Below are positions 6,374-43,500 of a stretch of 64,000 bases of DNA, piece after piece; positions within the stretch are counted from its first letter, which is position 1, and each line of letters opens with the position of its first letter. The notes beneath the pieces are model-generated. The model did not search any database. It was not told where the DNA came from and worked only from the letters and a program-made list of their open reading frames with translations. Source of the stretch: an uncultured bacterium (GTDB lineage: Bacteria > Caldisericota > Caldisericia > JAAYUI01). Position numbers and translations under genes: made by a program. Where the stretch lies: NCBI GenBank assembly GCA_965370295.1, contig CBDUSO010000003.1:7059-71058 (forward strand). The letters are read 5' to 3'.

Positions 6374-7969
6374 GTGTTTCCACTTGCTAGTCTTGAACTC
6401 AAGACCATCGAAGAGGATGCCTTCCTGGGGCGTTACACATTAGAACCTCTTCATCCAGGATATGGAGTACTAATTGGCAACAGTTTGAGAAGGGTTATGC
6501 TCTCCTCAATCAAGGGTGCCTCTCCTATCGCACTCCGAATTGACGGTGTTCCTCATGAATTCTCCGTGATTGAGGGTGTGGTAGAAGATGTTGTTCAGAT
6601 CGTTCTTAATCTGAAAAAACTCGTGGTTGCCATGGATACTGATGAAATCCGAACACTAACACTCGATGCTTCTGGTGAAAAGATGGTTACTGCGGCTGAT
6701 ATTATTCCCGATATTGATACCACCATCGTGAACCCGGAACTTCACATCGCAGAACTTTCATCACCAAACTCAACTCTTCGAATGGACATAATGGTATCCA
6801 AAAAGAGGGGTTACGTTCCCATTGTCAAAAACAAAATGGAAGGTTATCCCATTGGTACCATCTGGCTCGATGCCATGTTTACACCGGTCAAAAATGTCAG
6901 ATTTTCTGTTGAGCAGACATTAATTGAACAGTATCTGGACTTTGAAAGATTGAGTATCGATATCCTTTGTAACGGTGCAATTCCACCCCGTGAAGCATTG
7001 CTCCAGGGACTCCAGATACTCTCAGATTACTACACTGTGATTGCACAACCTGAGCTTCTCAAAAAAGAAGAAGAGGGACTTGAAGAGATGCTGGAAGAAA
7101 AGCTTGGTCAACCACTTGACACAGCAGTTCCAGGCATTTCTGCAAAAACCCACCATCTTCTTGTTTACGAAGGAATCAAATCACTTCGTGACCTCCTCAT
7201 GCGTGAGCAGGATGAAATCAAAGCAATTCGTGGAATCAGCACAAAGGCTCTCTCCTCCCTCATGAAGGCGTTAAACAATTCCCCAGATTACGAATTGATT
7301 TCACAGTACACATTCCCTCTCTTTGGTGAAGAATCAGCTGTAGAAGTTTCCGATCCAGTCGAAGAGGAACCCAAGAAAAAATCTCAGAAAGAACCAGTTT
7401 CCGTAACTCCCGAGGTTGAAGAAGAAATTTCAGAACCAGAGGAAGAAACTGTTCTTGAAACTGAAGAATTAAAAATTGACAAAACCGTAACTGGTGAGGC
7501 AGATGTCCCTCAGGAAGCATTGAACTATCAACTTGAAGATATTTCACTTGCAAAACACACCATGAACTTCCTTGAAGAAAATGGTGTTACTACCCTTGTC
7601 CAGTTGGTAAGCAGATCCAGAGATGAAATTCATGAGATGAAAGATTTCAAGGATAAGATTATCACTGAAATCGAAAATAAACTCGAAAAATTGGGTCTTC
7701 AACTCTCATCAGACAAGAGTTTTGAGTCCATGGATAAGGCAGCCCAGGAGAGAACAATTCGTGAAATGGAGATTGAAGTCTTCATCGCAAATGATGTTCC
7801 AATCCCAAGCACATCCCAAAAGGCACTCGAACAAAAAGGGATAAAAGTTGTTGGTGGACTCATGGATTTGGGAAAATCCGCACTTAAAGGAAAATTGAAA
7901 TTCTCAGGAAAAACAATAAAGACGATAGAAAAGAGACTCCAAGAATGGGGTCTTGAGCTCAAGGAGTAA
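6374..7969 (+). CDS. rpoA: DNA-directed RNA polymerase alpha subunit with extended C-terminus (three alpha-CTD-like HhH modules)
   Basis: GTG start after a GAGGGG RBS. The alpha-NTD spans aa 1 to about 230. Three modules match the alpha-CTD helix-hairpin-helix pattern, separated by an acidic E/P-rich linker. Total length is 531 aa against about 330 aa in typical bacteria. Confidence 0.9.
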   Translation: MFPLASLELKTIEEDAFLGRYTLEPLHPGYGVLIGNSLRRVMLSSIKGASPIALRIDGVPHEFSVIEGVVEDVVQIVLNLKKLVVAMDTDEIRTLTLDASGEKMVTAADIIPDIDTTIVNPELHIAELSSPNSTLRMDIMVSKKRGYVPIVKNKMEGYPIGTIWLDAMFTPVKNVRFSVEQTLIEQYLDFERLSIDILCNGAIPPREALLQGLQILSDYYTVIAQPELLKKEEEGLEEMLEEKLGQPLDTAVPGISAKTHHLLVYEGIKSLRDLLMREQDEIKAIRGISTKALSSLMKALNNSPDYELISQYTFPLFGEESAVEVSDPVEEEPKKKSQKEPVSVTPEVEEEISEPEEETVLETEELKIDKTVTGEADVPQEALNYQLEDISLAKHTMNFLEENGVTTLVQLVSRSRDEIHEMKDFKDKIITEIENKLEKLGLQLSSDKSFESMDKAAQERTIREMEIEVFIANDVPIPSTSQKALEQKGIKVVGGLMDLGKSALKGKLKFSGKTIKTIEKRLQEWGLELKE

Positions 7970-12234: not shown

Positions 12235-13124
12235 GATGGCTCTCGGTTCTGGTTTGCGTAGTTGTTGTGTTATCGACGGTATCATTTGTTGATTCACATG
12301 ATCCGGAGACTTTCATTGAAACAATTGAACCAGAAAAAATTGAACTCTTTAACAGATTTGAAAGACTCGGATTGCTCCCTCCCAGCTTTGAGCTTGATCG
12401 CATGGATGAATACGTCAGTAGAGACGATTGTATATCGCTGGTTTCTTTGTTAGTTGATTGGGGAGATAGGCTCTGGATTCAACGAACATCATCAGGATTT
12501 TCAAAAACTTTTTTGAAAATAAAACGTTTTTTCGGATACATCGATACTGATATTAAGTTTCTTGAAAATATTTCCAGCAGAGAAAATGCAACACTGCTGA
12601 TGATGGCGAGGCGGTGGAATCTCAGGGTAAACGTAGAGAGTCTTGACGTAGAGGTTTTTGGATGGGAGATGCTTGAAATGGAGTACAACGCACTCTCTCG
12701 GATGCTTTGGACGGCTGGAATTCCTAGAACGTTGATTGATGAGGTTAGTTCGGTTTTAGAAGAGTTAGGCGATATTCAGGATGAATCTGATAGTTTGTTT
12801 AACTCTGGGAAGCTGTCTGGCATGGTTGGATTGAATTCGTACAGAGGGGATAAACATCTCTGGGCTTACTACCTGACCGCACTTCAACATGAGCTGTTGC
12901 CTGGGTCCTCCGAGGAGATACATTTTAACGAAAGAAGTACTCCTCAAGAGATTTTGAACCTTGAACTTACGATGTATGAAACACTTCTTTTTGCAGACAG
13001 AATGATAGGCTATGTTGATTCGTTCACCGGCCATGTTTCTGGTTTTTACGAAAGAGTAAACCTGATGAAAGAATCAGCTGTTGTGACCTCAGGACAGATC
13101 GTTGAACTTTCAAATAGTTACTAA
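12231..13124 (+). CDS. hypothetical protein with N-terminal signal/anchor
   Basis: Start placed at ATG 12231 (MRWLSVLVCVVVVLS…), overlapping the upstream stop as ATGA. The longer track ORF starts at a TTG. Confidence 0.5.
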   Translation: MRWLSVLVCVVVVLSTVSFVDSHDPETFIETIEPEKIELFNRFERLGLLPPSFELDRMDEYVSRDDCISLVSLLVDWGDRLWIQRTSSGFSKTFLKIKRFFGYIDTDIKFLENISSRENATLLMMARRWNLRVNVESLDVEVFGWEMLEMEYNALSRMLWTAGIPRTLIDEVSSVLEELGDIQDESDSLFNSGKLSGMVGLNSYRGDKHLWAYYLTALQHELLPGSSEEIHFNERSTPQEILNLELTMYETLLFADRMIGYVDSFTGHVSGFYERVNLMKESAVVTSGQIVELSNSY

Positions 13125-13126
13125 CC

Positions 13127-13172
13127 CAAAAAAAAACAGAAAAGGACTCCTTTATTTTGAAATATAGAGTCC
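13127..13172 (-). terminator. rho-independent terminator for rpmB
   Basis: GGACTC…GAGTCC hairpin followed by a T-run on the minus strand (an A-run at 13127-13135 on the + strand). Confidence 0.5.
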
Positions 13173-13215
13173 CCTTGTTGTCCTGCTTAAGTTTTGTTAC
13201 AGAGTGTTTTTTTAG

Positions 13216-13404
13216 CTAAACTATTTCTACTTTGCCAGCTTTAAGGCATTTTGCACAGAGTTTTACTCTCTTTACTGTACCACCGATTTTGGCTCTGACA
13301 GTGTGAAGATTGGGTAACCAACGCCTCTTTGTACGGACGTGTGAATGACTGACCGTGTGACCGGTTATTGGACCTTTGCCACATATATCGCACTTTCTTG
13401 ACAT
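13216..13404 (-). CDS. rpmB: 50S ribosomal protein L28
   Basis: [33 protein letters not shown]… is a canonical L28. Confidence 0.85.
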
Positions 13405-13491
13405 TATTCTTCGACCTCCTGGTTATTGACGAACATGTAATCTACCATTCTTTTTGCGTTGTACAAGTGAGGAAAAGGAAAATGAATGTAG

Positions 13492-13519
13492 TTGACATGA
13501 AGTGCATAAGGGATACAAT
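13492..13519 (+). promoter_or_regulatory. candidate sigma70 promoter for rplM-rpsI
   Basis: TTGACA-N16-TACAAT about 25 nt upstream of the rplM RBS (AGGAGG). Confidence 0.45.
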
Positions 13520-13543
13520 TCATGCTTCGGTTAGGAGGATACC

Positions 13544-13972
13544 ATGGATACAGTATTCCCAAAGATAGAAGAGAAAGATAGAAAATGGTACTTGGTTGAT
13601 GCCCAGGAAGCACCTGTTGGCAGATTGGCAACAAAAATTGCCAGATTGCTCACAGGCAAAAATAAACCAATTTGGTCTCCACACATTGATGGTGGTGATT
13701 ATGTTGTCGTTATTAATGCAAATAAGTCCAATGTAACTGGTAACAAGAGAACGGATAAAAAATATTATTCCTACTCAGGTTATATCAGTGGGTTAAAAGA
13801 AGTTCCCTTCAGAAGAATGTTACTTAGACATCCAGAACGAATCATCGAGAGGGCTGTTTGGGGCATGCTTCCAAAGACGAGATTGGGTCGCAAGATGTAC
13901 ACAAAACTAAAAGTGTATGCCGGTGAAAGTCATCCGCATTCAGCCCAACAACCAACCAAGCTGACATTTTAA
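13544..13972 (+). CDS. rplM: 50S ribosomal protein L13
   Basis: …RKWYLVDAQEAPVGRLATKIARLLTGK… is an L13 signature. Confidence 0.9.
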   Translation: MDTVFPKIEEKDRKWYLVDAQEAPVGRLATKIARLLTGKNKPIWSPHIDGGDYVVVINANKSNVTGNKRTDKKYYSYSGYISGLKEVPFRRMLLRHPERIIERAVWGMLPKTRLGRKMYTKLKVYAGESHPHSAQQPTKLTF

Positions 13973-13983
13973 GGAGTAAATGA

Positions 13984-14364
13984 ATGTATAGAGCAACAGG
14001 AAGAAGAAAAACAGCGGTAGCCCAGGTTATTATGACCCACGGGGATGGTGAGATAGTAATCAACAACAAGCCACTCAACGATTATTATCCAAACTCTACC
14101 TATCATAGACCAATCTTTGAGCCACTTGCAGTAGTCGATCAGCTCAGAAAATATAACATCAAAGTGAAAGTTGCCGGTTCTGGAAAATCAGCTCAAGCTG
14201 GTGCGATCAGACATGCTATCGCAAGAGCCCTGGTTGTTGCAGATGCAGATCTCAAAACACAGCTCAAGAGCCATGGTTTGATGACTCGTGATGCCAGAAA
14301 AAAAGAACGTTGCAAAGCTGGACTTCGTGGAGCCAGGAAGGACAGGCAGTACCGCAAGAGATAA
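13984..14364 (+). CDS. rpsI: 30S ribosomal protein S9
   Basis: 126 aa ending in the S9 C-terminus …RKDRQYRKR. Confidence 0.9.
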   Translation: MYRATGRRKTAVAQVIMTHGDGEIVINNKPLNDYYPNSTYHRPIFEPLAVVDQLRKYNIKVKVAGSGKSAQAGAIRHAIARALVVADADLKTQLKSHGLMTRDARKKERCKAGLRGARKDRQYRKR

Positions 14365-15425
14365 TGCAACGGTCATTATTCTCGAACACAAATATCGAAT
14401 TCACAAACTCCCTGGAAGAATTATCCGGGGAGTTTTCTGATTTTAGCGAAGTATCTCTTTTTATTCCCTCGATTTGGAAATATTCCCAGTTCCCCCCAGG
14501 GGTCGAGATTGTAAATTTACTAATCAATTTTCTTGTGTCAAAAGGAACTCGAGTTCGATTACTTTATGATGGATTCAAGATGAAAGATTGGATTCAAGCG
14601 GTTGATTCAGAAAAAATTGAATTGATTGACCTGAATAGTACTCGCTACATGAGAACCGACGGGATTGGTGAAAAGAAGGTTCAACGATATGGAAAATCTG
14701 ACAATCTCCGAATCCCGATTCTCAAAAATATCTTCATTAATTCTGTAGTGATGGATTCCTCAGCAATAATTCCCATTCTTACGCCATATCCTTCAAATGT
14801 TTTTTTAGTGAACGGTGTGATAAGTTCGTTTATGTCTATCATTCCCACCGAGACAAGAACCAGAATTCTTTTAGAGGCTGGTGTTGGCAAACACCACGAT
14901 GCTCTCGTTGAATTATTCTCACTCATTTACAAAAAAGTGATTCTTGCGGTGTACGATTTTCATCACTTTTTTAATTGGTCCGGAAGTGGTGAGGTCGAAC
15001 ATGTTAAAGTTGATTCAACGCTGGTAACAACAGATGTGGTTGCGGGTGATGCACTTATTTATTCGCTGTTTGGATGGCCAAAACTAATATCAAAAAACAT
15101 TAGAACTGCGATTGATTTGAGATTGGGTGATGGGCTTCTTGATGAAACTCTTATAACAGGATGCAGACCAGAGCTACCAAAGATAAAGAGACCTGTTTCA
15201 GACCGAACGCAAATACTATTTCCATTCTCTGCGATTGTGAAGTTTCTGGTTCAGGTCAAGCCGGACTCTTGTACAGGTTGCATGGAGTGTACCTATGCGT
15301 GTCCTAACGGGTCGATTACGGTGATTGATGAGGATGTATTGGTGGATCATTCAATGTGTGTAAAATGTTTTGCCTGCGTCGATGCCTGCCCTGAATTTGT
15401 ACTCTCTATCAAAAGGAGACCCTGA
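14365..15425 (+). CDS. hypothetical protein with C-terminal 2x[4Fe-4S] ferredoxin domain
   Basis: Start placed at the ATG directly abutting the rpsI stop. The C-terminus has CTGCMECTYACP and CVKCFACVDACP motifs. Confidence 0.5.
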
Positions 15426-31770: not shown

Positions 31771-31902
31771 TGTCTCTCTCTACGTCTTTCCCGTAAAAAC
31801 GGGAATCTAGGGTAGCAAAAAAGCGTATTCATATTTTGGAAAAACAATTGTTGAATCAGATAAGTTTTTTGTTTTTCATAAATGTGTACTCAGCTCCAAG
31901 AA

Positions 31903-31932
31903 CCCTGGATTCCGCATCAAGTGCGGAATGAC
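31903..31932. repeat. palindromic repeat, copy 1 (ccctggattccgcatcaagtgcggaatgac)
   Basis: 8-bp stem ATTCCGCA/TGCGGAAT. A near-identical 30-mer occurs at 38425-38454. Both lie about 110-135 nt upstream of a tRNA gene. Confidence 0.7.
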
Positions 31933-32037
31933 AAAGGAGGGCAAAAAGCGGACATCTCCCCTTGAAAAAGGGGAGCATAAACCGGAATGACGATGTATCT
32001 AATTGACTACCAACACACAAAACGTAAACTCACACGT

Positions 32038-37056: not shown

Positions 37057-37110
37057 ATTATGCGGGGACAAGGATTCCTACAGGTTATCGATATTCATCT
37101 TGCTATGATT

Positions 37111-37213
37111 GTCATTCCTGAGAAATCGGGAATCCAGGAGATTAAAGAATTGAATTCAAATTCTGAAAAATCAACAATCAACTAGACAAGATTTCTGTTT
37201 TCTCAGGAATGAC
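37111..37213. mobile_element. MITE-like element with 15-bp terminal inverted repeats
   Basis: GTCATTCCTGAGAAA (37111-37125) is the exact reverse complement of TTTCTCAGGAATGAC (37199-37213). The 70-nt core is about 92% identical to 38325-38395. Confidence 0.55.
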
Positions 37214-37232
37214 AAGTCCTTATTTTCTTAGT

Positions 37233-37300: not shown

Positions 37301-38275
37301 ATGTTTACGATTGAATATAAACTTGATAGTGATTTTGGGAAGGAACGGTTTTGGGTGTATATGGATTGGTCATACATGGAGGGTAATGAGGAGGGTATTG
37401 TTCTGTATTTTGATATTCCTGTAAATAATCCAAATGCAAATCGTGAACAGCTTTGGGAGGAATTCAATGCTTTTCTAAGAAGAGAAAAGGTTGAATGGTT
37501 AATCAAAGATGATGAAGATTATATTCTTGATTTTGACAATCTTCTTAATGACATCAGGACGGGAGATCGATATGAAAAAAGATGTACCAATTTCCCAGAT
37601 GTAGAATGGTTCAACGGAAAACTCGAAGTGCCTATTCGGCAGGGTGGTGTATCAGTAAATTCAGGCTCAGGTGATCCAAATGACTTGTATTGCACTTACG
37701 ACTTAACGTTGCTCAAGGCTCAGATTGAAAAAAGAAAAAGAGATATTGAAGAAATAAAAAAATTGCAAGCACCCAAAATAATTTTTCTAAGTTGTGCACA
37801 CGAAGACCGTAAGCGCATAGATGAATTTCAAAAGACATTAGAAGTTATAGGCTATGATTGTTGGTTTTATGAAAACGATAGTATTGTAGGAAAGCCTTGT
37901 TCAGAAGAATATTTGGCTAAAATAAAGAATTCAAGAGTAGTTGTATACTTCATTACTGAATCGTTTACTGAAAAGATAAAAAATACTGGTAGTGGTGTAT
38001 ACAAAGAGCTTTTTGCAGGTGTTGAAAGATACCAATCTGAAAATGAGAAATTCAAGATTATACCAATAATAATGCCTCCTCTGAGGGTAATTTATAAAAT
38101 ATTAAGAAAATTGGGAGTAAGGAAAATTAAGATTCCCAGTATTATAAAAGAGACTGATATTACATATTCGGAGGGTAAATCAGAACTTGAGTGTTTACGC
38201 ATTATTCTTAAGAGTATCCAAGATTTGGAATTGAACGAAGCAACAGATTACTTAGGTGCTTTTTCTTTTGAATGA
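37301..38275 (+). CDS. TIR-domain protein with unknown N-terminal domain (candidate antiphage/NADase effector)
   Basis: Residues ~160-300 match TIR motifs: KIIFLSCAHEDRKRI (box 1), DCWFYENDSIVGK (BB-loop region), SRVVVYFITESF, and GVYKELFAGVE (alphaC with the conserved Glu). The gene is AT-rich with a strong RBS. Confidence 0.6.
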   Translation: MFTIEYKLDSDFGKERFWVYMDWSYMEGNEEGIVLYFDIPVNNPNANREQLWEEFNAFLRREKVEWLIKDDEDYILDFDNLLNDIRTGDRYEKRCTNFPDVEWFNGKLEVPIRQGGVSVNSGSGDPNDLYCTYDLTLLKAQIEKRKRDIEEIKKLQAPKIIFLSCAHEDRKRIDEFQKTLEVIGYDCWFYENDSIVGKPCSEEYLAKIKNSRVVVYFITESFTEKIKNTGSGVYKELFAGVERYQSENEKFKIIPIIMPPLRVIYKILRKLGVRKIKIPSIIKETDITYSEGKSELECLRIILKSIQDLELNEATDYLGAFSFE

Positions 38276-38305
38276 TATATCCAGTAATAGGTCGCCATAC
38301 TCTTC

Positions 38306-38395
38306 GTCATTCCCGCTTTACGCGGGAATCCAGGAGGTAAGGAATTGAATTCAAATTCTGAAAAACCAACAATCAACCAGACAGGATTTCTGTTC
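38306..38395. repeat. second, truncated copy of the MITE-like element (left TIR-like hairpin present, right TIR absent)
   Basis: gtcattcccgctttacgcgggaatccaggaggtaaggaattgaattcaaattctgaaaaaccaacaatcaaccagacaggatttctgtt aligns with 37111-37198. Confidence 0.5.
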
Positions 38396-38424
38396 CATAC
38401 AAATATTCACACGCTTTGATAGCA

Positions 38425-38454
38425 CCCTGGATTCCGCATCGAGTGCGGAATGAC
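38425..38454. repeat. palindromic repeat, copy 2 (ccctggattccgcatcgagtgcggaatgac)
   Basis: 29/30 identical to 31903-31932. A further gtgcggaatgac fragment lies at 38500-38511. Confidence 0.7.
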
Positions 38455-38588
38455 GAGGATGGATGTGGGATGACAAAAGAGTATTATAAAATAACGAGGG
38501 GTGCGGAATGACAAAAGCAATAATTCCCCAGCCAAAAAATGGTTTCTTGATTTTACTCCCAACCCCATATATAGTTGTCTGTCAGTGA

Positions 38589-38665
38589 GGCGACGTGGCC
38601 AAGTGGTCTAAGGCGATGGTCTGCAAAATCATTATTCAGGGGTTCGAATCCCCTCGTCGCCTCCA
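38589..38665 (+). tRNA. tRNA-Cys (anticodon GCA), CCA encoded
   Basis: Acceptor GGCGACG/CGTCGCC, anticodon loop CTGCAAA, T-loop TTCGAAT, 3' TCCA. Confidence 0.8.
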
Positions 38666-38684: not shown

Positions 38685-39575
38685 TTATCCCAGCAATTCC
38701 TTCTTTATTTCGTCACCCGGTTTTTTCTGTTTGTCGGTAAGCGAGATAAATAGTGCTGTCTCAACGATAACAACGAGAAGAATTCCCAACTGAGATGCGA
38801 CAGTTCTGATGAATTGATTTGAAGTTGCATAGTCGGTGAAATAGGTGATTGTCATCGAGAGCAGAATAATCGGAGCTATAACCAAAACTATCAGTATTAC
38901 TTTTCCAGAACTGATGTGGATTGAATACTTGATGCTGTCAAATAATCTTTCGGATGATTCAAGTCGAATATAGCTGAGAAATGTGATTCTCAGGAATACA
39001 AAAACCAAAAAGATAACGGTTACAGATGCGACGATTGACCATGGTATGAAGCTCGTATTATTATTGATGAAATCCGGAGTAACAACATAGATTTGAACGA
39101 ATGTACCAATCAGTCCAGCAAAAAGAATTGGCGAGAGCGTCAACCACATTGCCCCTAAAAATCTCATAGAGGGTTTAACAGAAGAGGTAATTGCTTTACT
39201 GAGCGAATCCTTGTTTCTGAGAAGTTTGATGATTACCCAGCTTGCAAACCCGACCAAAAGTATCTGTATGGTGAGAGTGAGGAACACTTGAATTCCGCTA
39301 TTCATTGCTTTGAAAAATACTGTACTCTCCCCGCTTTCAGCAATAACTGGGATTCCACCTCTTATGATTTCTCCAAAAAGACTATCACTCCAGAGTCTCC
39401 AGGGAGAGAGACCGCCCCATCCAGACCCAACAAGCTTTGCCATGATTCGTTGAACAAAGAATGTGAGTGGGTATGAAACCGCTATCATGATTCCAAAAAC
39501 AATAATGCAACTCTTGAGGCACCTGTCTTTTATTTCAATCAGGACTGAAATAAATCTAGCAAATTGTTCAGCCAT
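38685..39575 (-). CDS. polytopic membrane protein, paralog 1 of 5 (unknown family)
   Basis: 296 aa with 6-7 TM segments. Shares topology and motifs with the four genes upstream. Confidence 0.55.
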   Translation of the reverse strand: MAEQFARFISVLIEIKDRCLKSCIIVFGIMIAVSYPLTFFVQRIMAKLVGSGWGGLSPWRLWSDSLFGEIIRGGIPVIAESGESTVFFKAMNSGIQVFLTLTIQILLVGFASWVIIKLLRNKDSLSKAITSSVKPSMRFLGAMWLTLSPILFAGLIGTFVQIYVVTPDFINNNTSFIPWSIVASVTVIFLVFVFLRITFLSYIRLESSERLFDSIKYSIHISSGKVILIVLVIAPIILLSMTITYFTDYATSNQFIRTVASQLGILLVVIVETALFISLTDKQKKPGDEIKKELLG

Positions 39576-39577
39576 TT

Positions 39578-40369
39578 CTATTTGACTGCTTTCAGGTATA
39601 ATGGTGCGAGCAAGGTGAGTTGGATGATCAGGATCAGGGAGCTAATTAATTCTGTGACAAGGGGAAGATTCCCTGTCAGATTGAAAAAAACTTTTGTCAT
39701 GATTGCAGTTACAATGACGATTCCAGCCACAATCCCGGTGAACATTTTTGTTTTATCCATCGAGGAACCAAGGGCAGAAAACCAGGATATTTTTTCGACC
39801 ACCACACAAAATGGTGTGAAGGCAAATCGGATATAAACGTAAAGAACAACGACCACTAAAATAATAAATATGAGCAAACCAGCTATGACATATACCAAAG
39901 CTCCTAGTCCAAATCCAACAGCAAAGGAGAGCAAGAGTATAATCGCAATCATAAGGTTTACCCCCATCATTCTGCAAAGATTTTTCCAGCCTGCCTTTAG
40001 GAATTGGGAGATTGCTGATTTGGAATTTGATTCTTTTTGTGTCAGATAGTTTGCGATCCCGCCCTGGATGAAACTGAAAACAATGAGGAAGCTGAACACA
40101 TTTAGAGATATTATTATAGTCAACGTTTTCCACATGGCAGGTGGGATTGCCTGAAGGAATGGAACCCCTGCTTTTATCTGGGTTGAACCGAACTCAAAAA
40201 TCTCAGAGATCATGACCTGAGAACTAACAATTCCACCTTGTGTTACCCAGAAAATAATACTTGGAATCAGTAGAAACAATGCTGAGACAAGCCATATCAT
40301 CAGAAAATCACTTGTTCTCTCTCTGATAAATCTTCCCAGAAATGTTAACGATAGTTGTGTGTTGCTCAT
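39578..40369 (-). CDS. polytopic membrane protein, paralog 2 of 5
   Basis: 263 aa. A …KAGWKNLCRMMGVNLM… motif is shared with the paralogs. Confidence 0.55.
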   Translation of the reverse strand: MSNTQLSLTFLGRFIRERTSDFLMIWLVSALFLLIPSIIFWVTQGGIVSSQVMISEIFEFGSTQIKAGVPFLQAIPPAMWKTLTIIISLNVFSFLIVFSFIQGGIANYLTQKESNSKSAISQFLKAGWKNLCRMMGVNLMIAIILLLSFAVGFGLGALVYVIAGLLIFIILVVVVLYVYIRFAFTPFCVVVEKISWFSALGSSMDKTKMFTGIVAGIVIVTAIMTKVFFNLTGNLPLVTELISSLILIIQLTLLAPLYLKAVK

Positions 40370-40387
40370 ACCCTGGAGTATAGCTGT

Positions 40388-41326
40388 CTATGATTTCTGG
40401 TCAATGAGAATATTCAATTTTAATTCTTTGTCTGCGATGGGAGTGATTAGAATCACGGTGAAAGTGATTATAAGTGTGAAGATAATTTGGGAACCACCAA
40501 AGCTGTGGCTGGACATGAGCAACGGGAGAATCCCAAAGCCAAGAGGAAAAATTGAAAATGTAAACAATGTCCAGAAATATTTGGCAGAGCGATTCCAACT
40601 TAAAACCAAACACTTCCCCGGTGAATAGTCAGTGTTCATCACATAAAATGGGGCAAGCATGAATCTGGCACTGCGATAAATCATCGCATACAACCCAACA
40701 GAAAGAATTATCCACAATTCCAACCTGCCAAAAACAATTACAGAGACAGTGTAGCAAAATGCAAAAAGAAATGCTGTAGCGATGAAAGTTCTGATTGTGA
40801 TGAGAATCATTATTCCAACCATTCGAACATATTGAGAGAGTTTGATACGGAAAAAAGTGACAAGACCAGAATTCTCGTCAGATTTTGAAGTGAACACGTT
40901 CACAAGACCACAGAGAATATATGGTAAAACAAGCAAAAACCAGACAAGCCCAATGAGTACCCATCGCCAGATTAACCACAAAACAAGCTGTACCTTCAGG
41001 TCAAGTTCGTGATTGAAAGTAATTCCGCCTTCATAATCAAATGAACCAAGTGTTTCCAATAATTCTTCGAAGAGATATGTCCCAGTAAAAACTTCGTTGA
41101 AAGCCTGTTTTTCTATCGATATTTCATTTATTTTTACGGACTTTCTTGAGCTTCTTGTGACTTCCTCTGTTTGGTTATTTATTTGATAGGGGTCATTTCC
41201 AAAAATTGCAAGGTTGATTGCAGGGGATAGCAGAGAGATGAGGAAGCAGACTACGATTATCAGAGCCAGCTCTGACCCCCATCTCTTCAGTGCAGTTGAT
41301 AAGAAATCTAGTGATTTACCAATCAT
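40388..41326 (-). CDS. polytopic membrane protein, paralog 3 of 5
   Basis: 312 aa. Confidence 0.55.
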   Translation of the reverse strand: MIGKSLDFLSTALKRWGSELALIIVVCFLISLLSPAINLAIFGNDPYQINNQTEEVTRSSRKSVKINEISIEKQAFNEVFTGTYLFEELLETLGSFDYEGGITFNHELDLKVQLVLWLIWRWVLIGLVWFLLVLPYILCGLVNVFTSKSDENSGLVTFFRIKLSQYVRMVGIMILITIRTFIATAFLFAFCYTVSVIVFGRLELWIILSVGLYAMIYRSARFMLAPFYVMNTDYSPGKCLVLSWNRSAKYFWTLFTFSIFPLGFGILPLLMSSHSFGGSQIIFTLIITFTVILITPIADKELKLNILIDQKS

Positions 41327-41338
41327 GTTGTGTTATTT

Positions 41339-42175
41339 TTACCAGGTAGTTCCTTCTGTTGATTCGTTGCTTATTTCTGATTCATCACCAACAAGTTCTG
41401 ATGCATGTTTGTAGAGTGGGTAGAACAGGAAAGCTTGAGAGAGAACAGTTATTACTATACTGATAATTAATGCCACATATAATCCCGAAACAAGTGATAA
41501 GATTATGTAATTAACAATACCTAGAAGCAGTGCTAATCCAAATAGACTCCAGTATACACTCTTTGCTTTTTTGAAAGATATACCGATGGTTGATAAAACT
41601 GGTGTGTCAGTTAATGCAGCTTCGTACATCATAAACATGAAAAATAGTGCGACAGCTGTTACCGCAAACGTGATAATGAAAGCGACAAAGAGTATGCCAC
41701 TGATATTCCCCGACATAAAAACTGAGAAAAAGATCAGTCCTAGAATCAGCCCGACTATTAGCCCGATCACAAAGGTTAGAAGTGCCTGAAGTAACGATGC
41801 ACCCAGCACACGACCAAACTTTTTAAGTCCCATATTGAAAAATAATGCCACATGGTTGTCTTCGTTTTTCTTCGAGTTTAAGTATGAGAGAAATCCTGCT
41901 GTGGTGAACGATGTAATCACTATCAAGATTATCACGAACAGAAATAATAATCCGACTAGATTACCAAGTTGTGGGGCTACGCCTGTACCTGCCCCAACAT
42001 TTGGAGACTGGAACATCCCGTATGGGTTTGGCATTGGTGTCATACCTGGACCAAGCGAACCAGAAAATAATAAGTACGGAAGGAGAGTGAAGCCAATAAT
42101 AATAAGTAGAATGATAAAAAATGCTGATGGATTTCTGGAAATCAACGATATAACGTTATTTATATATTTTTTCAT
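41339..42175 (-). CDS. polytopic membrane protein, paralog 4 of 5
   Basis: 278 aa. MKKYINNVISL… and …GFLSYLNSKKNED…FGRVLGASLLQAL… motifs. Confidence 0.55.
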   Translation of the reverse strand: MKKYINNVISLISRNPSAFFIILLIIIGFTLLPYLLFSGSLGPGMTPMPNPYGMFQSPNVGAGTGVAPQLGNLVGLLFLFVIILIVITSFTTAGFLSYLNSKKNEDNHVALFFNMGLKKFGRVLGASLLQALLTFVIGLIVGLILGLIFFSVFMSGNISGILFVAFIITFAVTAVALFFMFMMYEAALTDTPVLSTIGISFKKAKSVYWSLFGLALLLGIVNYIILSLVSGLYVALIISIVITVLSQAFLFYPLYKHASELVGDESEISNESTEGTTW

Positions 42176-42335
42176 GAAGTTTATTGTATTCAGTGAGTGT
42201 TAACGTGTCAAATGGAATTTCTGTGTGATTCACGTTTTCAGTTAATAATTTGTTGTTTTTTGTTGAAAAGAGGTGCTTTGAATGGGGACAAGGAATCAAA
42301 TTCTGATCCTCATCCCCAAAGAATGTTTATTTCAA

Positions 42336-43250
42336 TTATTCTGAAAATCCGCTTGCGTCAGGATTTTTGTTCTCTTCGTTCCTGAGTTTCTTGTAATGAG
42401 ATTCGAGAATTTTTCTGTCCATCTCATCCATTTGCCCTTTCTCTGCTCTGTCGGCCAACCATCTTTCTGTAGCCAAATTATAGAGTGGATAAAAAACAAA
42501 TGCCGTGAGATATCCGAATATTAGGTTTATCAAGAAGTATGAACCATAATACAATAGATCACCAAATTGTCTGAGCGCGCCTATCAGTAATGAAGAAACA
42601 ATTATCACAAATATCCAGAAAAACATCAACCAAAATACTTTCTTTGCTTTCTTGAATGAATTCGAAACCCACTCACCTACCACAGTTTCATCTTTGAGGG
42701 CAGCTTCAAATGTGATGAAATATGTGAACACCATCACAATGATTAATATGAGTGTGGATGCAATAATTAACCCAGAGCCTCCACCTGCTCCGCCACCAGG
42801 AGAGATTTGAAATATTGCCATAAGAATTGCAACGGCTATGGCAAGGGGAATGATATAAGCAAGCATCATGAGGTATTGCATCATGGTTGCACCTATCATT
42901 CTTCCCCATTTTCCAAATGCTGATTTGAAGAAGAAATTCACATACTCGTCTTTTTCTTGCCTCCCCTTTTTCAGATAGCTCAAAAAGCCACCTTCAATAA
43001 ACGCAGAAAAAATGCCAATGACCAGGATAGATAGCAACAGAAAAAGGAAGACTTCACCTGCTTGCCCAGTGATATATTCGTTTGTCCCCACCATACCTGT
43101 GGTTGAAATGTATTCCTGTGTGTTGAACACAAACTTATTGAAAAGAAACACAACAAGTGTCATCAACCCCCCGCAAATAAACAAAATCCACAGAAATGCA
43201 CCCGTATTATGCTTAACCAATTCAGAAACTTTTGATATATATTTTTTCAT
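42336..43250 (-). CDS. polytopic membrane protein, paralog 5 of 5
   Basis: Start placed at the MKKYISKV ATG by homology to paralog 4. The track ORF extends to ATG 43271. Contains …GFLSYLKKGRQEKDE…WGRMIGATMMQYL…. Confidence 0.5.
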   Translation of the reverse strand: MKKYISKVSELVKHNTGAFLWILFICGGLMTLVVFLFNKFVFNTQEYISTTGMVGTNEYITGQAGEVFLFLLLSILVIGIFSAFIEGGFLSYLKKGRQEKDEYVNFFFKSAFGKWGRMIGATMMQYLMMLAYIIPLAIAVAILMAIFQISPGGGAGGGSGLIIASTLILIIVMVFTYFITFEAALKDETVVGEWVSNSFKKAKKVFWLMFFWIFVIIVSSLLIGALRQFGDLLYYGSYFLINLIFGYLTAFVFYPLYNLATERWLADRAEKGQMDEMDRKILESHYKKLRNEENKNPDASGFSE

Positions 43251-43353
43251 AACGTTAATACTAACTAACATCTGATTTTTTTCAAGACGGGTTCAGTTGA
43301 CTAAACTTTGCTTGACCAGATTGGTTTACCGATGTATCTTTGTCGGAGGTTAT

Positions 43354-43440
43354 GCCGGAGTGGCGGAATTGGTAGACGCACGGGATTTAAAATCCCGCGA
43401 TGGCAACATCGTGCCGGTTCAAGTCCGGCCTCCGGTACCA
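43354..43440 (+). tRNA. tRNA-Leu (anticodon TAA), CCA encoded
   Basis: Anticodon stem-loop CGGGA-TTTAAAA-TCCCG, long variable arm, T-loop TTCAAGT, 3' ACCA. The 1-72 pair is G·U. Confidence 0.75.
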
Positions 43441-43451
43441 GGCGTAACAAC

Positions 43452-43500
43452 AAAAAAACCCCACTTTCAGTAGATTCTGTCGGTGGGGTTTTATTATTTT
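43452..43500. terminator. bidirectional rho-independent terminator
   Basis: CCCCAC…GTGGGG hairpin flanked by an A-run (5') and a T-run (3'). It serves tRNA-Leu on the + strand and the convergent minus-strand gene ending at 43525. Confidence 0.7.

Follow-up and report, generated by a model that had tools for sequence, protein, structure and literature searches.

The 64,000-nucleotide (nt) stretch of DNA analyzed here, hereafter the window, comes from an uncultured bacterium of the Caldisericia (positions 7,059 to 71,058 of contig CBDUSO010000003.1, assembly GCA_965370295.1) and carries five tandem minus-strand genes for polytopic membrane proteins between a tRNA-Leu and a tRNA-Cys gene. We named these genes M1 to M5, M1 being the last gene of the array. 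Profile comparisons place all five proteins in one anciently split superfamily, that of DUF7847 and GPDPase_memb, and the array is a lineage-restricted, multi-paralogue variant of this known, uncharacterised superfamily. Three of the genes, M3-M2-M1, constitute a conserved core under purifying selection, and the genes of the M4/M5 type vary among close strains. We are highly confident of the identity and architecture of the array. Our best overall explanation, an operon with a conserved core and exchangeable outward-facing subunits, is tentative, and we rate it a little below an even chance. The five consecutive open reading frames (ORFs) and both bounding tRNA genes, first described in a sequence-only reading of the window, were confirmed and are located as follows (aa, amino acids).

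38589..38665, plus strand: tRNA-Cys(gca), conserved boundary downstream of the array
38685..39575, minus strand: M1, ORF of 296 aa, last gene of the operon, subfamily G1, the most divergent
39578..40369, minus strand: M2, ORF of 263 aa, subfamily G2
40388..41326, minus strand: M3, ORF of 312 aa, subfamily G3
41339..42175, minus strand: M4, ORF of 278 aa, variable M4/M5 type (G45), heading the putative M4-M3-M2-M1 unit
42183..42211, minus strand: sigma-70-like promoter match, TTGACA-17-TACAAT, 11/12 of the consensus, directly upstream of M4
42283..42318, minus strand: GC-rich hairpin directly after the M5 stop codon, -21.5 kcal/mol, z -2.9
42336..43250, minus strand: M5, 304 aa from the MKKYI start (the longest ORF reaches 43271, 311 aa), variable M4/M5 type
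43354..43440, plus strand: tRNA-Leu(taa), conserved boundary upstream of the array

Direct comparison of the five proteins yielded a single significant pair by BLASTP and phmmer, M4 and M5, which were 31.5% identical over 279 aa (E ~1e-23). The remaining pairs were 14-23% identical in a multiple alignment and non-significant by BLASTP and phmmer, with marginal values for M2-M5 (E 0.03) and M3-M4 (E 0.2), and direct pairwise searches with M1 against the other four gave no match. The identity of roughly 25-40% estimated in the sequence-only reading therefore holds for M4-M5 but not for the other pairs, and the all-vs-all alignment suggested there as a check links only M4 and M5 directly, the other pairs being linked by profile comparison and fold instead. 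For the profile comparison, orthogroup profiles built from related genomes were compared using hhalign, with reversed profiles as controls (probability, E-value and aligned columns are given below).

M2 group vs M4/M5 group: 98.8%, E 5e-17, 237 columns
M3 group vs M4/M5 group: 95.4%, E 2e-8, 199 columns
M2 group vs M3 group: 86%, E 5e-6, 204 columns
M1 group vs M4/M5 group: 27%, E 7e-4, 209 columns, collinear
M1 group vs merged M2-M5 profile: 88%, E 3e-6, 213 columns (the reversed controls covered the pairwise comparisons only)

In the pairwise comparisons among the array subfamilies, reversed profiles reached at most 2.6% probability. Among 1.84 billion representatives, an exhaustive HMMER search with the M4/M5 profile retrieved only 54 proteins (E <= 1e-3). 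We scanned 55 sequences against Pfam, namely 52 of these 54 matches together with M4 and M5 of the window and protein P0002. DUF7847 was found in 18 of them (best 5.7e-15) and GPDPase_memb in 15 (best 2.3e-8); the distant matches also contained DUF7544, DUF2189, DUF4013 and DUF6159, and some of the relatives were fused to zinc-binding domains. A profile of the distant matches only then served as a second hhalign target, for which the reversed controls remained at or below 13%.

M1 group: 94.9%, E 4.5e-8, 260 columns, full length
M2 group: 99.7%, E 1.4e-26, full length
M3 group: 97.6%, E 3.8e-12, full length
M4/M5 group: 99.8%, E 1.8e-28, full length

Over all profiles of outside relatives, true matches scored 94.9-100% except for one weak M1 pairing, and reversed controls did not exceed 22%. 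Because each subfamily profile aligns over its full length to the profile of distant matches, the five proteins are best placed, at the level of sequence profiles, in one superfamily (DUF7847/GPDPase_memb) that split anciently; M1 joins it via the profile of distant relatives and via its fold. Chance similarity of hydrophobic segments was rejected on the basis of the low reversed-profile controls. Thus, the five genes are paralogues of one family, as had been proposed, although far more deeply diverged than described, and the membrane domain of glycerophosphoryl diester phosphodiesterases (GP-PDE), one of the candidate families named at that time, proved correct at the superfamily level through the GPDPase_memb profile links.

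None of the five proteins reached the Pfam gathering threshold (best scores 13.3 bits for M4 and 12 bits for M3; cut-off 28.7). M3 and M4 had weak direct matches to the same region of the DUF7847 model, and M1, M2 and M5 had none to DUF7847 or GPDPase_memb. Pfam, NCBIfam, PADLOC and PHROGs gave nothing above threshold for the five proteins, and a literature search on the DUF family names returned nothing functional. The array proteins resemble DUF7847 (PF25231) and GPDPase_memb (PF10110, the membrane domain of GP-PDEs) in size (~250-320 aa), in having six transmembrane (TM) helices and in having both termini inside, the topology of the Pfam families being assumed. A fused GP-PDE domain defines the GPDPase_memb family, whereas the array proteins carry neither a fused GP-PDE domain nor a zinc-binding domain; further, no soluble or enzyme domain was found in the five proteins (263-312 aa), and there was no GDPD match. 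The array is a conserved multi-paralogue operon, in contrast to the DUF7847 relative P0026, which in the one context examined is a single-copy gene in a MoxR/VWA operon. Because P0026 is single-copy, the tandem array is a feature of this clade and not of the superfamily. P0026, a distant DUF7847/GPDPase_memb relative (locus L015, 8001-13038), shares its operon with a 224-aa protein, DUF4350, a MoxR-type AAA+ ATPase and a DUF58/VWA protein, and SpoIIM-like and RDD membrane proteins adjoin the operon. This context may hint at a role of the wider superfamily.

All five proteins have a common predicted layout of six TM segments with the N- and C-termini inside, as judged by hydropathy and by the distribution of lysine and arginine. 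A short basic N-terminus inside leads into TM1; an outer loop of 30-70 aa connects TM1 to TM2, and a basic cytoplasmic loop connects TM2 to TM3. After TM4, a second cytoplasmic loop leads to TM5 and TM6, and the C-terminus is inside. The length and charge of loop 1 differ among the paralogues; that of M3 is extracytoplasmic, acidic and ~68 aa long. The shared topology that had been noted from the sequence therefore stands, with six TM segments common to all, but the motifs described as shared, KKYI and GFLSYL...GR(V/M)(L/I)GA, occur in M4 and M5 only. Besides the start methionine, four residues are invariant across the five proteins in the multiple alignment (G74, R138, G141 and S222 in M1 numbering), and the R and the following G of the GR(V/M)(L/I)GA block are among them. 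In the M1 family, the motif LPYIRLESSERFxDSIKYS of a cytoplasmic loop is strikingly conserved and the C-terminal tail KELLG is nearly invariant, and M5-type proteins have a different conserved charged C-terminal tail (...MDEMDxKILESHYKKL...SGFSE). These loop and tail motifs look like docking motifs for cytoplasmic partners. Testing for a three-fold internal repeat of the kind present in SLC25 carriers gave no significant result (best 19% probability).

AlphaFold2 (AF2) models of M4 and M1 were confident (predicted local distance difference test scores 89.6 and 84.1), and their helix order agreed with the six-TM layout, with short amphipathic helices before TM1, TM3 and TM5. The M4 model is built of three units, each with a short helix ahead of two TM helices. 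The predicted fold is accordingly a bundle of the CysZ/CTL type, with three helix pairs, a short interfacial helix before each pair and cytoplasmic termini. The M4 and M1 models matched only CysZ, CTL1 and PNS1; in the Foldseek search with M4, these three families ranked first, with probabilities of 0.82-0.99. The likeness of the modeled fold to CysZ/CTL is real but moderate. CysZ consists of three helix pairs and three short helices, mediates a passive, channel-like sulfate flux, and forms dual-topology antiparallel dimers in a hexamer, with two hemi-penetrating hairpins (PMC5967866). By prediction, the array proteins share the three-dimensional fold of CysZ (PDB 3TX3, 6D79, 6D9Z), at 12-13% identity in the structural alignment, but their six TM helices are all full-length, in place of the hemi-penetrating hairpins, and their N-in orientation is fixed. 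Further, no gene of sulfur assimilation is located near the array, and none of its neighbors (por, a HisJ-type PHP phosphatase and Cu_amine_oxidN1) is sulfur-related. SLC44/CTL1 and yeast PNS1 (8-19% identity) are larger, eukaryotic proteins with extra helices and an extracellular domain, features that are missing from the array proteins.

M1, M2 and M3 are represented in related genomes by one-to-one orthologues, in fixed order and in single copy wherever present. M1 orthologues were 31-95% identical. For M1-M3, the identity to the close strains (loci L001, L004 and L019) was 91-96%, to L002, L005 and L011 48-57%, and to L006 40-42%. As a calibration, the window and L005 were 86% identical in porA, 92% in porB, 70% in Cu_amine_oxidN1, 56% in PHP and 48-53% in M1-M3. 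The ratios of nonsynonymous to synonymous substitution rates (dN/dS) against L001 and L004, at dS ~0.3, were 0.09-0.10 for M1, 0.04-0.06 for M2 and 0.11-0.13 for M3, which shows that M3-M2-M1 is a conserved core under purifying selection. The M2 gene called in L004 (4480-5202, 240 aa) has a late start; the full 263-aa frame is open upstream.

The M4/M5 slot behaves differently. Across the four closest strains (the window, L001, L004 and L019), the flanks are 91-93% identical at the nucleotide level, and the slot is sharply different: L019 has one gene of this type, the window two and L004 three, and the alleles are 45-57% identical. L004 possesses an additional M5-like copy that is 55% identical to M5, and L019 lacks M4 and has one M5-type gene, which shares 55-57% identity with the others. 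The M4 allele of L001 is 45% identical to that of the window, and nucleotide identity collapses within positions 41439-42111 of the window and returns at both ends. The copy-number variation across relatives that the sequence-only reading had proposed to look for was thus found, with one to three copies of the M4/M5 type. M5 of the window is chimeric with respect to L004, its upstream region being like copy 1 and its body like copy 2, and ~90 nt of 5' coding sequence are common to both M5-like copies of L004. The chimeric structure of M5 relative to the L004 copies indicates that copy number changes by unequal recombination through near-identical 5' ends.

Within an allele type, dN/dS against L004 was 0.17 for M4 and 0.11 for M5, which corresponds to purifying selection. 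M5-type alleles were identical at a fraction of 0.72-0.77 of positions in cytoplasmic segments and 0.27 in extracytoplasmic segments, and M1-M3 orthologues at similar overall divergence showed ~0.5 inside and 0.33-0.41 outside. Measured in the genome pairs used for M1-M3, the outer face of the M5-type proteins was at 0.16-0.20 and the inner face at 0.53-0.55, like that of M1-M3. Because of this contrast with M1-M3, we conclude that the fast evolution of the M4/M5 type is specific to its outer face and TM helices, and that its cytoplasmic face is conserved. Part of the high identity inside may stem from homogenization of the gene ends by recombination. Accordingly, the description of the array as a diversifying family fits the M4/M5 subfamily (alleles 45-57% identical, outer face) but not the array as a whole (M1-M3 orthologues with dN/dS 0.04-0.13). 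Diversifying selection in general was rejected (dN/dS 0.04-0.17), and a mechanism of the diversity-generating retroelement type for the variability of M4 was dropped, the divergence spanning the whole core of the gene (45% aa identity) and not a short variable region in which the changes are specific to adenine.

Two alleles show apparent lesions. The M4 allele of L001 (1-837) has an in-frame TAG at codon 11 (MKKYIDNVIS*ISANPS...), and the gene caller began at a later methionine; this was seen in one contig, and the TAG could mark a pseudogene, stem from a sequencing error or be bypassed by a restart. The M5 orthologue of L004 (1529-2347) has lost the charged C-terminal tail (272 vs 304 aa), apparently through a frameshift or an early stop.

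Homologues of the array proteins are rare, and all those with a named source belong to Caldisericia. The M1 family was detected in four of 185,579 species-representative genomes, each from Caldisericia or Caldisericales, and in two additional metagenome loci. In this analysis, the placement of the window in the lineage rests on synteny and on orthologues with 42-57% identity. The order tRNA-Leu(taa)-array-tRNA-Cys(gca) was found in the window and in L002, L004, L005, L006, L011 and L019; L001 is cut at a contig end, so that only its tRNA-Cys side is visible, with at least one M4/M5-type gene. In most loci, the array lies between the por operon and the genes for the HisJ-type PHP phosphatase and Cu_amine_oxidN1. 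The composition of the arrays, classified by hidden Markov models of the groups, was as follows.

Window: M4/M5-type 2, M3 1, M2 1, M1 1
L004: M4/M5-type 3, M3 1, M2 1, M1 1
L019: M4/M5-type 1, M3 1, M2 1, M1 1
L002: M4/M5-type 3, M3 1, M2 1, M1 1
L005: M4/M5-type 3, M3 1, M2 1, M1 1
L006: M4/M5-type 3, M3 1, M2 1, M1 1
L011: M4/M5-type 2, M3 0, M2 1, M1 1

The most distant loci, L008 and L014, are without both tRNA genes and lie beside a histidine kinase gene and rpsB-tsf; the order is kept there as an M4/M5-type gene, then an M2-like and then an M1-type gene. Every genome with a visible array has at least one M4/M5-type gene, in three genomic contexts. The M1-type gene is always the last of the array and the G2 and G1 genes are always adjacent, with an overlap at their junction in L005, L006, L008 and L011 and a gap of 3-11 nt in the other loci. 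No candidate partner gene conserved beside the array was found at the loci compared. Because the relatives have the same tRNA genes and usually the same por, PHP and Cu_amine_oxidN1 flanks, and because the GC content is even across the window, the array is shown to be a vertically inherited operon, confined to a small Caldisericia-related clade. The same tRNA genes bracket the array in six further genomes, and they are conserved neighbors, not island borders. A tRNA-bounded island was rejected by the conserved synteny and uniform GC content, only the M4/M5 slot and a separate spot with a TIR-like gene being variable. In L002, the por genes (12777-14806) of the Caldisericia metagenome-assembled genome GCA_041391325.1 were called as several short fragments, which suggests that this assembly carries frameshift errors and that its gene lengths need caution.

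The stop-to-start spacers are 12 nt (M4-M3), 18 nt (M3-M2) and 2 nt (M2-M1). The M5-M4 spacer is 160 nt long and contains both the GC-rich hairpin and the best sigma-70-like match of the region. This arrangement, a hairpin after M5 and a promoter match before M4, suggests two transcription units, M5 alone and M4-M3-M2-M1, read from consensus matches only. The total of promoter-like sites in the region was not above the shuffled expectation, and the site upstream of M4 is a consensus match only. The hairpin is a possible terminator splitting M5 from the M4-M1 unit; no clean U-tract lies behind it, and a comparable spacer is located ahead of copy 2 in L004. M5 probably starts at 43250 and not at 43271, since nearly all M4/M5-type homologues open with MKKYI. 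An Rfam search upstream of M5 and M4 detected neither a riboswitch nor any other regulatory RNA, the tRNAs being the only matches. Outside the array, a GC-containing inverted repeat of 16 nt (AACAAAAAAACCCCAC / GTGGGGTTTTATTATT) at 43449-43498, between tRNA-Leu and the convergent end of the Cu_amine_oxidN1 gene (406 aa), probably represents a bidirectional terminator.

The gap between porB and tRNA-Cys, on the other side, is a small variable spot of putative defense genes, separate from the membrane array, because its TIR-like and DUF4917 content differs among close strains. The TIR-like ORF (37301-38275, plus strand) has weak ThsB-type PADLOC matches (E 1.7e-4), is flanked by 57-nt direct repeats (37143-37199 and 38338-38394, 93% identical) and does not occur in the close strains L001 and L019. 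L004 has at this spot 78%-identical fragments and a DUF4917 protein that matches the candidate defense family PDC-S21 (E 5e-42). An intergenic element of ~100-160 nt, found as secondary blastn matches from L001, L004 and L019, occurs near tRNA genes at 31784-31944, 37109-37204 and 38300-38458, and contains a 26-nt inverted repeat (37109-37134 and 37190-37215).

How might the five products act? The fixed gene order, the overlapping or near-abutting codons of M2 and M1, the presence of an M4/M5-type gene everywhere and the oligomeric state of CysZ lead us to propose that they would work together in a hetero-oligomeric assembly of the cytoplasmic membrane. M1-M3 would be its invariant core, and the M4/M5-type subunits would be exchangeable and set an outward-facing specificity. 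Because CysZ is the only fold relative with a measured activity, the assembly might, by analogy, conduct or bind a small polar solute passively. We regard this combination of hetero-oligomer and solute mechanism as doubtful. Its most specific form is a CysZ-like channel in which paralogues would take the place of identical protomers, M1-M3 being fixed, M4/M5 swapped by cassette-like recombination and the exposed face under balancing selection; the locus would then encode a modular membrane channel or receptor. We consider this form improbable. Several observations weigh against the proposal. L011 is without M3, and M3-type genes were likewise not detected in L008 and L014, so that the core is not strictly invariant, and gene order kept in a narrow clade can reflect mere shared ancestry. 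Neither a riboswitch nor a metabolic neighbor indicating a substrate was found. In the Foldseek search, E-values were above 0.1 and TM-scores ~0.4-0.56; a profile search of all PDB chain sequences gave no CysZ at E <= 10 and no sequence link to a solved structure, and there was no Pfam match to the CysZ/EI24 family at E <= 1 and no sequence link to CTL. All five proteins are predicted to have the same positive-inside N-in bias, unlike dual-topology CysZ. Finally, CTL1 and PNS1 are monomers of disputed transport role, with a fold judged "incompatible with transmembrane transport" (PMC13160678).

The same data can be read in other ways. The five proteins may be independent paralogous channels or permeases, each acting alone or as a homo-oligomer on different solutes, with the tandem order as a relic of duplication. 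The great age of the paralogues (14-23% identical) and their distinct loop 1 lengths and charges fit separate specificities, the loss of G3 in L011 and the varying number of M4/M5-type copies are expected of dispensable units, and CysZ itself is a homo-oligomer (PMC5967866). We nevertheless consider independent permeases rather unlikely: the G2 and G1 genes are always adjacent, with codons that overlap or nearly abut, an M4/M5-type gene lies ahead in every visible array, and the lack of a riboswitch or substrate-linked neighbor counts here as well. A role as scaffold or regulator tethering cytoplasmic partners, or in lipid or envelope metabolism as suggested for CTL proteins, would accord with the verdict on the CTL1/PNS1 fold (PMC13160678), with the cytoplasmic helices, loops and C-terminal tails being most conserved (KELLG and RLESSER in M1; SGFSE in M5), with the fusion of relatives to GP-PDE or zinc-binding domains, and with the one DUF7847 relative in a MoxR-DUF58/VWA-DUF4350 operon. 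However, the array proteins have no fused soluble domain and no conserved candidate partner gene beside them, and the best structural match of M4 is CysZ, which conducts sulfate (PMC5967866); a role other than transport is very unlikely in our judgment.

The M4/M5 module, and perhaps the whole array, may instead be an envelope polymorphism locus, encoding outward-facing targets of phages or membrane-acting toxins, or immunity proteins, under balancing selection; this corresponds to the receptor or immunity role considered in the sequence-only reading. Strains ~92% identical carry one to three copies with alleles 45-57% identical, the divergence lies on the extracytoplasmic face (identity 0.16-0.27 outside vs 0.53-0.77 inside), alleles are exchanged via conserved ends, and the variable defense-gene spot (TIR; PDC-S21/DUF4917) adjoins tRNA-Cys. 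Tandem polytopic membrane immunity proteins that vary among strains are known from the TsaI/DUF443 arrays beside TspA in Staphylococcus aureus, near polymorphic toxins. We take these arrays as a lead only: they resemble the present one in consisting of tandem polytopic paralogues with strain-variable copy number, but here no toxin, secretion or bacteriocin gene is adjacent, and only the M4/M5-type module varies, the rest being conserved core genome. The defense or phage-exclusion role suggested in the sequence-only reading found no PADLOC or PHROG support; PADLOC gave no match for M1, M3, M4 and M5 and a non-significant one for M2 (E 0.04), and the PHROG search with the five proteins gave no meaningful match. 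Further, selection within an allele type is purifying (dN/dS 0.11-0.17), M1-M3 are conserved, the array belongs to the core synteny and not to an island, and the outer loops of membrane proteins are usually the fastest-evolving parts anyway. We judge an envelope polymorphism locus unlikely and prefer the operon reading, in which the core is conserved and the outward-facing subunits can be exchanged.

The practical weight of the finding is modest, the lineage being uncultivated and rare. Four anciently diverged subfamilies of one fold are kept in one operon, and one of them shows outer-face polymorphism among close strains. The locus is therefore a concrete system for studying oligomerization of the CysZ/CTL fold together with recognition at the outward surface. 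Further, this group of DUF families shares, by prediction, the CysZ/CTL fold, which would reduce the number of functional hypotheses for membrane proteins of many genomes.

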